A stretch of 64,000 nucleotides of DNA from Planctomycetaceae bacterium. Lineage in GTDB: Bacteria > Planctomycetota > Planctomycetia > Planctomycetales > Planctomycetaceae. Each line of letters opens with the position of its first letter. The stretch's first letter is position 1. The translations under genes and the position numbers were made by a program. A model generated the notes under the pieces. It saw only the letters and a list, made by a program, of their open reading frames with translations, was not told the DNA's origin and did not search any database. Shown here piece by piece: positions 20,927 to 25,436 of this stretch. The stretch is from positions 115,099 to 179,098 of the forward strand of contig JAKFWA010000068.1 of assembly GCA_021732995.1 (NCBI GenBank), in the 5' to 3' direction.

Positions 20927-21000
<74 letters not shown>

Positions 21001-21030
21001 CTTCGCTAACTTGAATACCAGCAATGAATT

Positions 21031-21077: not shown

Positions 21078-21478
21078 CTACCCAGTTGCTACTTTGCGGA
21101 GCGAAGCAGAAGCGGACTGAAGGAATGTGTGTGGGTGTCATGAGGCAGCGGGGGAACACCTTTCGGCATGCTACCGAGCGGAGGACCCAAGAAGCCGGGG
21201 GTAAGGTAGGCGCTTCCAGTATTCTTGCCGCTCAGCAACGGTACTTCTCCCCGCGAAAGGGATAACCGACATACCTCGCGCGCAGGGATAACGGTGTTAG
21301 CTCGCGCGCGGGTTAACAAGGTACAGCCACTCGAAAGATCCTCAACCAATTTGGTTGACAGATTGCTATTTGCTCGGCATTTTGCCCGCTGTCACAAACG
21401 AGCAGTCCTACGAGTCGAGCCGAGTTAGCTCGCGCGCTGCTCAATAAGACTGTTAGCCCTCACGATGAAGTCGCGGTA

Positions 21479-21994
21479 GTGCAACCACGAATTGAAATCG
21501 ACGACGCATTCTATCCGGATCACGCCGCTCTTTTCTCGATGCTGGTCTCCTCGGTTGCCTGGGACAATCGAATGACTGCGCGACGCACCGCTTCCTTCGG
21601 GCGTCCCTACAACTACTCGCAAATTGAATATCCTGAAACGCCGTTCCCATCTGACCTGTTACCGCTCATTGACATGCTGGACGCACGGTTGGGTGTGCGG
21701 TTCAACAATTGCTTGCTGAATTACTACGAAACCGGCGACAACACAATGGGGTTCCACTCGGATGACACAGCCGGGCTGTTTCCGGCAACCGGCGTAGCCA
21801 TCGTCTCATTGGGTAGTGTGCGACACATCACATACCGTTCGAAAGACAAACCCGACATTCAAAAATCATTCGCACTGCAACCCGGTTCGTTGCTTTACAT
21901 GGATGACTCCATTCAGGAAAAATGGCTGCATGCAATCAAGCGGCAAAAAGATGCCGGTCCACGAATCAGTCTTACGTGGCGGGCATTCAGGTAA
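21479..21994 (+). CDS. Cassette 1: AlkB-like 2OG-Fe(II) dioxygenase
   Basis: GFHSDD (HxD), WLHAIKR and RISLTWR motifs match AlkB family signatures (RxNLTFR). GTG start. Confidence 0.75.
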   Translation: MQPRIEIDDAFYPDHAALFSMLVSSVAWDNRMTARRTASFGRPYNYSQIEYPETPFPSDLLPLIDMLDARLGVRFNNCLLNYYETGDNTMGFHSDDTAGLFPATGVAIVSLGSVRHITYRSKDKPDIQKSFALQPGSLLYMDDSIQEKWLHAIKRQKDAGPRISLTWRAFR

Positions 21995-21998
21995 TCAG

Positions 21999-22088
21999 GG
22001 CTAACAATCGGTTCAACCGGAGCCGCGGGCCGCGCGGTTTTCCTGTGGAGACTCGTTTGCCGCGGCCCGGTTAACCGTGTCGTTGGGC
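21999..22088 (+). repeat. attC-like site 1 (GGCTAAC ... GTTGGGC)
   Basis: Begins at the stop codon of cassette 1. Left arm AATCGGTTCAACCGGAGCCGCGGGC and right arm GCCGCGGCCCGGTTAACCGTGTC are complementary apart from two unpaired bases. Confidence 0.8.
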
Positions 22089-22226
22089 GATCCGAACCGC
22101 AGAAACCAATGAACCACAATTCCGCCCCGCGCTCGATGCGTTATCGCCGTTCGATGTCGTGTCCTGCGCCCGCCTGCGAATGACAGTCCGTCAAAATGCT
22201 CGGAGAAGCGTACTGGAGAACCAACC

Positions 22227-22772
22227 ATGTTTCAGTGGCTCTACAATCCAACGTATCGAACTGTGTCGTCTGCTGTGCGACCGGATTTGGCGGTTATCCG
22301 TTCGCAATTGAAGAAGTACGCTGACTACGGCTGTTGTTGTCCAAGATGCGGAACAATGCTCACGTCGGCGATGACTTACGCGTCCGGTAATGCGGATACG
22401 GCGATATCGATAATCGGTGAATGGCGTCGCTTCATTGAGCAAGCCCAAACGGAGATTGACCAATACGTCACAACGACCGTTCCGTTTTCAATTGCATTGG
22501 ACCGCAAACAATTGTTTGTCCATTTCGAAGCCGTCGCTTCGGCTAACAAACAATGGCAGGTCCGCGCTGAGGTCAAAGATTCCTATCGCGACGAATTCGT
22601 GCAGTCCGACGATGGGACTGAATTCGGCGGCTCGCACTTAGATGAGATGCCGTTTGTCAGCAGTTGGGGGCGAATGGCTAGCGTGTGGAGTCACCGAGAG
22701 GTCAGTCTTGTTGTGGACCGCATACCGTCGGTCCCGCAAATGATTCCGCTCATGGAATTAGTAAGCCGTTGA
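22227..22772 (+). CDS. Cassette 2: hypothetical protein (181 aa, CCCPRCG motif)
   Basis: ORF between attC-like sites 1 and 2. No known domain recognised. Confidence 0.55.
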   Translation: MFQWLYNPTYRTVSSAVRPDLAVIRSQLKKYADYGCCCPRCGTMLTSAMTYASGNADTAISIIGEWRRFIEQAQTEIDQYVTTTVPFSIALDRKQLFVHFEAVASANKQWQVRAEVKDSYRDEFVQSDDGTEFGGSHLDEMPFVSSWGRMASVWSHREVSLVVDRIPSVPQMIPLMELVSR

Positions 22773-22779
22773 AGGCATC

Positions 22780-22870
22780 GCCCAACAAGCCGGTCAACGC
22801 GAGCGGCGGCTCGCGCGTTCTCTGTCTTCCATTTCGCTGGCCGCCGCCCGCGTTACCTTGGACGTTACAC
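22780..22870 (+). repeat. attC-like site 2 (GCCCAAC ... GTTACAC)
   Basis: Inverse core GCCCAAC is the reverse complement of the GTTGGGC that ends site 1. Internal CGAGCGGCGG / CCGCCGCCCG inverted repeat. Confidence 0.8.
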
Positions 22871-22884
22871 CAGAGAGTTGGCGC

Positions 22885-23574
22885 ATGCCCGAAGAATCAA
22901 CCGCTGACTCTGAGATCGTTCATCTCACGGCGCTGCAGAGTATCCGGCACAGACCATCCATGTACATCGGCGATGAATCTGGGAAGATCAATCCGAATAC
23001 GCTCGTGATTGAAGCAATGTGTTTGGCATGGTCGAACGCATGTGATGGTTGCTGCAGCACAATCAGCATCAGCCTGGTTGATGATACGGTTACGATCTGG
23101 GACGATGGCCCGGGATTGGATGTCACCAAACAATTGTCGGATACTCATTCCCTGATTCGTGCTGTATTCAGTGAAATCCACGCTTGCCGTGACGCAAAAG
23201 CAAATCAGAGTCGAGATGTTTGCCGAGTTGGCATCGCCGTGGTGACTGCGTTAAGCAAGGCAACGATTTACGAAACAGCCCAATGTGGCTTTGTTTGGCG
23301 GCAGTCGTTTACTGCCGAGGACTCCAATCGTAAGCTTGAAAAAATTGCCGCAACAACCGAACAATGGCAGCGCGTCACGTTCGTACGCGACCCCACAATA
23401 TTTGGCCCAAACAAAATTACTTGTGACGGGGTCATCGAGGTTCATAACGCCGCGTCAAACGGCCTGCCGCCGTACGAGAAGAACAGATTGCCAGCAGCCA
23501 ACGTACGGCTTACACTGGCGGACGCTGCGACGAACAGTTGTATCGTTCTAAATGCAGGTGTAACAAAACGCTGA
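22885..23574 (+). CDS. Cassette 3: stand-alone GyrB N-terminal (24-kDa GHKL ATPase subdomain)-like protein with degenerate ATP-lid
   Basis: LTALQSIRHRPSMYIGD aligns to GyrB LDAVRKRPGMYIGD. WSNACDG aligns to VDNAIDE, and DDGPGLD to DDGRGIP. The C-terminal VTFVRDP...VRLTLAD aligns to the GyrB VRFWPS...IRLRD region. The glycine-rich G2 box is degenerate. The start is moved to the second ATG (22885) because the first ATG overlaps the attC-2 core. Confidence 0.65.
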   Translation: MPEESTADSEIVHLTALQSIRHRPSMYIGDESGKINPNTLVIEAMCLAWSNACDGCCSTISISLVDDTVTIWDDGPGLDVTKQLSDTHSLIRAVFSEIHACRDAKANQSRDVCRVGIAVVTALSKATIYETAQCGFVWRQSFTAEDSNRKLEKIAATTEQWQRVTFVRDPTIFGPNKITCDGVIEVHNAASNGLPPYEKNRLPAANVRLTLADAATNSCIVLNAGVTKR

Positions 23575-23647
23575 ACCCGAGTTGCCGAAGACGGGTTCTT
23601 GAAATGGAAGCTCACTCGCGGCAACCGGGTTAGCGTAGTCGTTCGCC
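23558..23647 (+). repeat. attC-like site 3 (GTGTAAC ... GTTCGCC)
   Basis: Inverse core GTGTAAC overlaps the last codons of cassette 3 and is the reverse complement of the GTTACAC ending site 2. Arms AAAACGCTGAACCCGAGTTGCCG and CGCGGCAACCGGGTTAGCGTAGTC are complementary apart from two unpaired bases (G and A). Confidence 0.8.
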
Positions 23648-23657
23648 GAGAGATTGC

Positions 23658-24248
23658 ATGCTTGCACCACTCGTCCTGCCCTTCCAGATTACTGTCGCTT
23701 CCTTCGCAGTACTTTGGTGCGTGGGAGCGCTTACACTCCGGACTCCAAAGCGAATTGCTTGGCTTTCAGTTGCCGCCGTTTTCCTCTTAATCCCATCCTG
23801 TGTCGGCGTAATGGCTGTCGTCGACTTACAGCGCTACGGGCGATTCGACTACGCACGTGCATCTGACATTCCCAACGACGGTTACATTGAACTTCCCGTA
23901 AATGCCACGGACATTACTCTCTACCGAAATGGTGCAGGTCACTGGGCGAAATTCACTATCGACATTGCATCGTTGCGATCTTGGATCGACGAACGTCGTT
24001 CATTGCGGCCGGACTTGAATCGACATCATGACGACGAAAACTGGTTGACAAAGACCACCGACCCCCAACGTCCTGTTATGCATGAACTGAACCAGCAGAT
24101 TTTCGGCGACCGTTTTCCGGAAACCGGATGGACTTACGACCCATCAATGCTGCAGTTGCAAGTTAGCCGTTCTGACAGAGGTGGCGGCTATACCGTGTGG
24201 CATGTCCCATCAACTGGCGATACATTCATCAGTGCCGGATACTGGTAA
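23658..24248 (+). CDS. Cassette 4: membrane protein (2 predicted TM helices), hypothetical
   Basis: Hydrophobic segments LVLPFQITVASFAVLWCVGALTL and WLSVAAVFLLIPSCVGVMAVV. Confidence 0.55.
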   Translation: MLAPLVLPFQITVASFAVLWCVGALTLRTPKRIAWLSVAAVFLLIPSCVGVMAVVDLQRYGRFDYARASDIPNDGYIELPVNATDITLYRNGAGHWAKFTIDIASLRSWIDERRSLRPDLNRHHDDENWLTKTTDPQRPVMHELNQQIFGDRFPETGWTYDPSMLQLQVSRSDRGGGYTVWHVPSTGDTFISAGYW

Positions 24249-24252
24249 CGAC

Positions 24253-24342
24253 GGCGAACAAAGCGTTGAACGCGAGCGGGCGATCACGCCGGTCTTGAAG
24301 TCAAGATCCAACGCGCCCGCCGCGTTAACGCAAGCGTTAGGC
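24253..24342 (+). repeat. attC-like site 4 (GGCGAAC ... GTTAGGC)
   Basis: Reverse complement of the previous core GTTCGCC. Arms AAAGCGTTGAACGCGAGCGGGCG and CGCGCCCGCCGCGTTAACGCAAGC. Confidence 0.8.
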
Positions 24343-24355
24343 GGAGGGGTGGCGG

Positions 24356-24736
24356 ATGGCATTGCTGGCGTGGGGCGCAAGTCGGTGTTCGATCTGCCAC
24401 GAGTTGCTGATCCCGGGCCAACTGATCATGGCCACCACCCACTTCATCGCCGATCCGGCCGATCCGCTCTGCCGGTTCTCCGACACCGGTATGCACGCGG
24501 CGTGCTTCGTTAGATGGGAGCACCGGGACGAATTCGCGGCCCGCTACCAAGCGGTAATGGGCCGCACGCTGTCCGGGTGGGTTCCTGCGGTACCTGCCAA
24601 CCCAGACGCTCCGCCACTACCAAGGTTCCGGCTGGCGGTGTTGAGCACACCGGAGTCACGAGCCGATTACTTCGCGGCGTTGCTGGCGAGTGTGGCACCA
24701 GACGCCGTACCTGGCGGATTGGATTGTGAATCGTAA
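24356..24736 (+). CDS. Cassette 5: hypothetical Cys/His-containing protein (126 aa)
   Basis: ORF between attC-like sites 4 and 5. CSICHE motif. Confidence 0.5.
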   Translation: MALLAWGASRCSICHELLIPGQLIMATTHFIADPADPLCRFSDTGMHAACFVRWEHRDEFAARYQAVMGRTLSGWVPAVPANPDAPPLPRFRLAVLSTPESRADYFAALLASVAPDAVPGGLDCES

Positions 24737-24749
24737 ATTCAACCATACC

Positions 24750-24839
24750 GCCTAACAAAAAAATGCACCCGACCGCCCGGTCTTGGTCGAATATAATGGT
24801 TCACCCACTCCGGGCGGCGGGTGATTTTTGGCGTTCGCC
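24750..24839 (+). repeat. attC-like site 5 (GCCTAAC ... GTTCGCC)
   Basis: Arms AAAAAAATGCACCCGACCGCCCGG and CCGGGCGGCGGGTGATTTTTGGC. The unpaired G and A sit at the same relative positions as in site 3. Confidence 0.8.
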
Positions 24840-24850
24840 TTGGAGGCACG

Positions 24851-25342
24851 ATGGACGAGGAGATTGCTGAGATCATCCGCCAGCACGGCTGGTACGCCGC
24901 AAACGTAAACGATGCGGACCCGCCGTTTCTCTACACCATCGGCCTCATGGAAAGGTGCAAGCATCCTGAATTCATCATCTTCGGTATTGACGCGGACAGT
25001 GCATATACCCTTTTTGCTGGCCTGATCGCTGACATTCAACGCGGCCAGACGTACTCGGAAAATGGCGTGCGTACAATCGAATTGGGCGGCGACAAACACC
25101 AAGTTGGCTTTCGACGTGTCCATCCAACGCAGCATCCGTTGTATCTTGGATTTGCAATGGGATTCCTGACCAACTCCGGGCGGATCGGTGAACTCAGCGC
25201 AATGCAGGCGTTTTGGCCAGATGACAAAGGGCGATTCCCTTTCGACACCGGTTGTGATATCGCCGTGTACAATTTGCAGCCACGTCTCGATATTGGCTTG
25301 ACGCCCCGCGAAATTCGGGAATTTGAACGTCGCTGGCAATAA
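24851..25342 (+). CDS. Cassette 6: DUF4262-like protein
   Basis: [35 protein letters not shown] matches my recollection of the DUF4262 N-terminal signature. The start is trimmed to the ATG at 24851, which has GGAGG 5 nt upstream, because the longer ORF overlaps the attC-5 core. Confidence 0.55.
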
Positions 25343-25345
25343 CGA

Positions 25346-25436
25346 GGCGAACAAGGCGGTCAATCCGAGCGGCGGATCGGGTGTTGTCGCAAATCAAAGG
25401 ATTCTGGCCGCCGCCGGGTTACCTTGGTCGTTAGGC
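25346..25436 (+). repeat. attC-like site 6 (GGCGAAC ... GTTAGGC)
   Basis: Close paralogue of sites 2 and 4. Internal GAGCGGCGG / CCGCCGCCGGG inverted repeat. Confidence 0.8.

Follow-up and report, generated by a model that had tools for sequence, protein, structure and literature searches.

A single-gene integron cassette (cassette 3) in the window, the whole 64-kb stretch of DNA analysed here, very probably encodes a folded, selectively maintained, stand-alone GyrB/ParE ATPase head whose ATP and Mg machinery has been dismantled. With similar assurance, the protein can be assigned to a diverse and uncurated clade of GyrB-head proteins that carry a cysteine signature, a clade whose Cys-signature pseudo-ATPase head is new here. 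Gyrase and topoisomerase IV are major antibiotic targets, and their ATP lid is attacked by interbacterial toxins such as Cpe1 and FicT. The family could be a class of protective decoys or immunity proteins, a natural gyrase modulator, or a Cys- or metal-centred use of the GHKL fold; any such function would annotate part of the vast unknown pool of integron cassettes.

The cassette lies within an array to the right of a tRNA-Arg gene (Table 1). The R' core of the preceding site, attC2, contains the crossover G/TT that opens cassette 3, and the TTACAC found there is complementary to R'' (GTGTAAC) of the cassette's own attC; indeed, every cassette in the array opens with six bases complementary to its own attC R''. 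The attC consensus folds into a structure of 21 pairs with two bulged bases, and compensatory changes occur in 13 of the pairs; the covariance model also finds sites on which it was not trained at six other loci (L001, L003, L090, L088, L174, and L175). No integrase was found by tblastn in the 64-kb window, and the array is thus a CALIN. A second copy of cassette 3, in L001, has a tyrosine recombinase of the IntI type 3 kb away. Positions 9955-10759 of L001 are 86% identical to window positions 22838-23644, and positions 531-1327 of L174 are 97.7% identical to 22846-23643. In both cases the homology stops at the cassette ends, and the neighbours of the cassette in the three arrays are unrelated. 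Together, the covariance model and the homology breakpoints bear out the original prediction that the gene is cassette-borne. In the wider family, 6 of 13 contexts lie outside recognisable attC arrays. We conclude with high confidence that in Planctomycetota members of the family are mobile as integron cassettes of one gene each.

Table 1. Features of cassette 3, its gene product, and the surrounding array (window coordinates).
Feature	Position	Strand	Basis or remark
tRNA-Arg	20927-21001		Left of array
Cassette array	21456..25436	+	Six attC sites, all ORFs on + strand
Array attC sites	21999-22088, 22780-22870, 23558-23647, 24253-24342, 24750-24839, 25346-25436		Covariance model
attC2 (preceding cassette)	22780..22870	+	Covariance model, 79.8 bits, E=1.6e-18
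attC2 R' core, GTTACAC	22864-22870
Cassette 3 (mobile unit, 777 bp, one ORF + attC)	22865..23641	+	Nucleotide-homology breakpoints
Cassette 3 ORF (stand-alone GyrB/ParE 24-kDa GHKL subdomain homologue, pseudo-ATPase)	22885..23574	+	Homology, dN/dS; 229 aa, ATG at 22885, TGA at 23572-23574
N-terminal strap and RxRPxMYxG, Ile11 to Gly29, IVHLTALQSIRHRPSMYIG	22915..22971	+	Kept as GyrB 10-28
RHRPSMYIG motif	22945-22971
Former N-box helix EAMCL (Glu43 for GyrB E42 kept, Cys46 for D45, Leu47 for N46)	23011..23025	+	HMM alignment
G1 box DDGPG, residues 73-77 (Asp73, Gly75, Gly77 kept, Arg76 to Pro)	23101..23115	+	Family alignment
Remodelled ATP lid, IHACRDAKANQSRDVCRVG	23176..23232	+	GyrB has LHAGGKF...GGLHGVG there
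Gln133 at coumarin-contact Arg136 position	23281..23283	+	Invariant in close subfamily
Trp161-Gln162-Arg163 replacing G3 box Gly164-Thr165-x	23365..23373	+	Subfamily and family alignments
FVRDP motif	23380-23394
RLTLAD motif	23506-23523
attC of cassette 3	23558..23647	+	Covariance model, 91.7 bits, E=1.1e-21
R'' of cassette 3 attC, GTGTAAC	23558-23564		Overlaps ORF end
R' of cassette 3 attC, GTTCGCC	23641-23647

An alternative, longer start (TTG at 22858) falls within the upstream attC, and the start Met of the 229-residue protein is common to all of its close homologues. All of these homologues are full length, being encoded by intact ORFs of equal length at 48-97% identity. Comparison with the L001 copy gives a dN/dS of 0.16-0.20, and the gene is therefore under purifying selection. 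A promoter scan at the locus gave no signal above chance.

The NCBIfam GyrB subfamily models match residues 7-178 of the protein to GyrB 11-186 (E=7e-22 and 2e-20), and the 24/43-kDa GyrB fragments in the PDB match it at an E of about 5e-12. The homology to GyrB is thus far beyond chance. The predicted structure (pLDDT 92.7, pTM 0.89) contains the Bergerat alpha/beta sandwich, and its GHKL head is nearest the GyrB/ParE clade. Thus, the matches to NCBIfam and the PDB agree with the original assignment to a stand-alone subdomain of the GyrB clade, as opposed to a MutL- or Hsp90-like one, and the motifs RHRPSMYIG, DDGPG, FVRDP, and RLTLAD are indeed present where they had been placed. Also as first described, the transducer with its QTK loop, the TOPRIM domain, and the GyrA-binding tail are all absent from the polypeptide, whose stop codon falls within the cassette's own attC; its scores with the GyrB models are 55-78 bits, against curated cut-offs of 720-900 bits.

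Within the ATP site, the residue corresponding to the catalytic E42 of GyrB is kept (Glu43, 80% in the family). At position 46, however, 98% of family members have Cys, whereas 85% of the GyrB/ParE matches outside the family have Asp there; this residue, D45, is the second catalytic acid of GyrB and is positioned at the nucleophilic water (PMC13614785). Position 47 is Leu in the cassette 3 protein; family members have Leu, Ile, or Val there, as against Asn in 91% of GyrB/ParE. The G1 box is well conserved in the family (D73 91%, G75 91%, G77 88%), and position 76 is Pro in 71% of members versus Arg in 81% of GyrB/ParE. The original prediction had listed an xNAxD motif, the SNACD at residues 50-54, which is not the N box. 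It is also rejected as a shifted N box, since Asn51 aligns with GyrB Glu50 and is conserved in 28% of the family, while GyrB Asn46 corresponds to Leu47. This leaves the ATP site more eroded than had been supposed.

The ATP lid is the most altered segment. It reads ACRDAK...RDVCRVG and is 3 residues shorter than in GyrB, with the Tyr109 region deleted. Cys101-Arg102 take the place of Gly101-Gly102, Cys113 stands where GyrB has His116, and the sole glycine kept is the last one, Gly116 (GyrB G119). Conservation of the new residues across the family is high (C101 97%, R102 83%, K105 89%, C113 98%, G116 100%), and lid positions are those that best discriminate the family (Jensen-Shannon 0.70-0.97). 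A triad of cysteines, Cys46, Cys101, and Cys113, together with Arg102 and Lys105, thus occupies positions that in GyrB contact Mg or the gamma-phosphate or belong to the lid. In addition, the alignment would place the bulky Trp161 at the wall of the adenine pocket. The residue mapping and the ranking of divergence between the family and GyrB indicate that the protein is almost certainly not an ATPase. Catalytic impairment had been anticipated, and it proves to be extensive, with replacements at N46, D45, G101-G102, R76, R136, and G164-T165 and in the glycine lid.

A search of 1.84e9 representative sequences with hmmsearch gave 5563 matches, of which the best 150, together with 7 other sequences, were classified (n=157). 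Sixty-seven of the 157 fall into the stand-alone Cys-signature group, with lengths of 192-234 aa, so that the family comprises at least 67 clusters at 50% identity, of proteins of ~200-230 aa. In the family a near-invariant Cys replaces each of D45, G101, and H116. Further losses are the Mg-binding N46, G102, R76, and the glycine lid, while E42, D73, and the N-terminal strap are kept. When the signature columns are left out of a neighbour-joining tree, 56 of 64 family tips still form one clade. The family is nonetheless diverse, its mean internal distance (0.74) being equal to its distance from GyrB. Both the size and diversity of this family and its conserved Cys triad had been missed in the original prediction. 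It knew of no described cassette function of this kind, and indeed the databases and literature searched gave no curated family or published function. Pfam, NCBIfam, and PADLOC contain no model for a stand-alone Cys-signature family, PHROGs matches the protein solely with its phage topoisomerase II large subunit, and the searches of plasmids, of phages, and of BFVD structures yielded only gyrB, parE, and topoisomerase II, with no stand-alone relatives. A scan of contigs with the subfamily profile found GyrB-type genes only, none of the length of the stand-alone family, and in a second scan the Cys signature was present in 0 of 81 sequences; both scans, which covered genome and metagenome contigs, were dominated by matches to the RPxMYI pattern and added no family contexts or taxonomy. 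A protein search with the broader family alignment gave 8 family members, followed by GyrB fragments. The literature searched on integron cassettes carrying GyrB and on stand-alone or truncated GyrB-like proteins does not describe the family.

Clues to function come from toxins that act on the GyrB lid. Cpe1 is a papain-like protease toxin that cuts GyrB and ParE at G101-G102 in LHAGGKF, and FicT modifies Tyr109 on the same lid (PMC12136450). The family has Cys-Arg (97% and 83%) in place of G101-G102 and lacks the Tyr109 segment, so these changes fall on the very lid sites that the toxins attack. There is also precedent for orphan immunity genes in integron-like arrays, the rAID-1 systems of Bacteroidales (10.1101/471110). 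On these grounds the reading that we favour, though with low confidence, is an ATP-independent mimic of the GyrB/ParE head that works through binding and most likely serves to draw lid-directed toxins away as a decoy. Such a protein would neither hydrolyse ATP nor take up aminocoumarins; instead, it would bind other proteins as a structural mimic of the ATPase head of gyrase or topoisomerase IV, its lid probably fixed in one conformation by the Cys triad, either through a metal site or a disulfide. Its most likely role would be that of a target-mimic immunity protein, protecting the cell by titrating a factor that recognises the GyrB/ParE lid. With Cpe1-type toxins as the model, the mimic would show the same fold and flanks (IHA-CR-xxK) without the Gly-Gly scissile bond. 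The divergence within the family is consistent with conflict-driven evolution.

Comparison with known immunity systems gives this proposal both support and difficulty. The immunity protein Cpi1 neutralises Cpe1 because it and the GyrB/ParE ATPase domain compete for the toxin's substrate-binding surface, and according to its authors it has no structural homologues (PMC12136450). By analogy, the same competition could come from a mimic of the GyrB head that has no Gly-Gly site, although the two proteins share no kinship in sequence or fold, and Cpi1 adjoins its toxin, whereas the cassette 3 protein has no toxin neighbour. In fact, no toxin gene was seen beside a family member in any context examined, and among 38 neighbouring cassettes there is one match to Imm35 (E=1e-5), the only one to a known immunity family, and one to an antitoxin. 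Furthermore, over-expression of cleavage-resistant GyrB/ParE in E. coli does not protect against Cpe1 (PMC12136450). Loss of the Gly-Gly lid would be expected in any GHKL protein that does not bind ATP, and the overlap with the toxin sites may be coincidental; nor does a decoy alone explain why three cysteines are nearly invariant. The 6 of 13 contexts outside attC arrays also weigh against the proposal. Like rAID-1, the arrays consist of small, co-oriented, mostly orphan genes with structured repeats between them and a linkage to a tyrosine recombinase, and the two may share a role as stores of protective genes. They differ in that the arrays bearing cassette 3 belong to Planctomycetota and, with their attC sites and, in L001, an integrase of the IntI type, count as true integrons or CALINs. 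It is rather doubtful that the family as a whole consists of target-mimic immunity proteins, that is, dead GyrB/ParE heads with a cysteine-stapled lid traded as integron cassettes. If this is true, the family would protect bacteria by luring away whatever attacks the ATP lid of a type IIA topoisomerase, be it a toxin, a phage factor, or an antibiotic factor. Defence of this sort, with an essential enzyme domain copied as a molecular decoy, would then be a principle that we did not find described for interbacterial toxins; in literature searches aimed at other questions, no immunity protein that mimics its toxin's target was found.

The cysteines themselves suggest another reading, in which the GHKL scaffold has been reused for metal binding, redox sensing, or thiol-dependent catalysis or binding of small molecules. 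Conserved cytoplasmic Cys triads usually signal a metal or reactive centre, and the three most family-defining positions are C46, C101, and C113 (97-98%), with R102 and K105 also conserved, at sites that in GyrB contact Mg and the gamma-phosphate or form the lid. About 90% of members keep the adenine-pocket residues Asp73, Gly75, and Gly77, and about 35-58% keep Gly164-Thr165 and Arg136, so a ligand pocket may persist in part of the family; in the cassette 3 subfamily, however, W161, Q162, and Q133 close it further. The gene neighbourhoods of the family give no sign of a metal or redox pathway, and a generic metal-binding role would not need the GyrB-specific surface motifs that are so strongly retained. 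A neofunctionalised protein of this kind is a somewhat doubtful prospect, and the same is true of its corollary, that the resemblance to GyrB is a matter of ancestry only.

Alternatively, the mimic might pair with the host GyrB or ParE head through its strap and head surface and so modulate gyrase at the N-gate. Between the family and GyrB, conservation is highest in the strap and RxRPxMYxG segment (I11 80%, R21 94%, R23 94%, P24 92%, Y27 86%, G29 89%), at levels comparable to those in GyrB/ParE. Moreover, among the full-length relatives retrieved, the nearest are GyrB proteins of Planctomycetaceae (30-36% identity), which share the FTEIHA lid flank, FTEIHAGGKFD compared with FSEIHACRDAK in the cassette 3 protein. 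With its lid fixed by the Cys triad, the protein could also imitate the ATP-closed state that licenses dimerisation. However, the GyrB head normally dimerises only when ATP is bound and the transducer domain is present, and the lone 24-kDa fragment is monomeric. In addition, most family members lack the Tyr5 equivalent (gap in 61%), and a gyrase poison made constitutively would be expensive to carry on a single-gene cassette without an antidote. Purifying selection on three independent chromosomal copies argues that the protein is tolerated. Such a heterodimerising modulator seems unlikely, and equally so its use as a dominant-negative brake on supercoiling, for instance as a stress or persistence switch or against incoming DNA or phage replication.

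The original prediction had also offered a drug sink, in which the truncated head titrates antibiotics of the novobiocin and coumermycin type away from gyrase. The fold is that of GyrB24, a known coumarin-binding fragment, the best Foldseek matches of the model are novobiocin complexes, and resistance genes are frequent among integron cassettes. In GyrB24, novobiocin contacts Asp73, Arg136, Asn46, Arg76, and Thr165. Of the polar residues of this pocket, Asp73 alone is kept; Asn46 is replaced by Leu47, Arg76 by Pro76, Pro79 by Asp79, Arg136 by Gln133, Gly164 by Trp161, and Thr165 by Gln162, and all six changes are invariant in the close subfamily. Most hydrophobic positions of the pocket are conservatively kept (A48, I71, L78, V94, I117, V164). 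Single substitutions of Arg136 suffice to make real GyrB coumarin-resistant. Pocket positions vary across the wider family, arguing that no common pocket is under selection, and the residues conserved family-wide are on the lid and phosphate side, outside the coumarin site. A drug sink is consequently very improbable, and despite the GyrB fold, nothing points to a mobile novobiocin-resistance gene, a tempting misreading that is corrected here. The other half of the original prediction, a decoy, antidote, or dominant-negative partner, is better supported, since the changes that define the family sit on the ATP lid that protein toxins attack. Finally, a decaying, functionless gyrB fragment, carried passively in a sedentary array, would account for the lost catalytic residues, the missing integrase, and the lack of a promoter above chance, but this scarcely credible reading is largely refuted by the dN/dS, the intact ORFs of equal length, the confidently folded model, and the near-invariance of the new residues in at least 67 divergent clusters.

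The closest known counterpart of the protein remains the 24-kDa GHKL subdomain of GyrB/ParE (E. coli GyrB24; P. aeruginosa GyrB24, 7PTF/8BN6; S. aureus ParE 43K, 4URL). Unlike that subdomain, it is the product of a separate gene in an integron cassette, has no transducer, TOPRIM, or tail, and has gained the Cys triad, with Asn46, Asp45, Gly101-Gly102, the Tyr109 segment, Gly113/114/117, His116, Arg76, Arg136, and Gly164-Thr165 replaced. Whichever of the functions considered applied, topoisomerase biologists would gain a natural tool that recognises the binders of the ATPase head or is recognised by them. N-terminal fragments of GyrB also occur as separate genes in the stand-alone, GyrB-43K-like proteins of ~380-420 aa, such as the Myxococcus xanthus 'truncated GyrB' (3CWV) and the 'ATP-binding protein' genes of Streptomyces and Sorangium. 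Those proteins, in contrast, keep the transducer (~400 aa), and none came up among the Cys-signature sequences (67 of the 157 classified) or was seen in a cassette. The GyrB-type genes recovered in the first contig scan are mostly full-length gyrB or parE; the remainder are ORFs truncated at the end of a contig and a few GyrB-like ORFs of ~380-420 aa.

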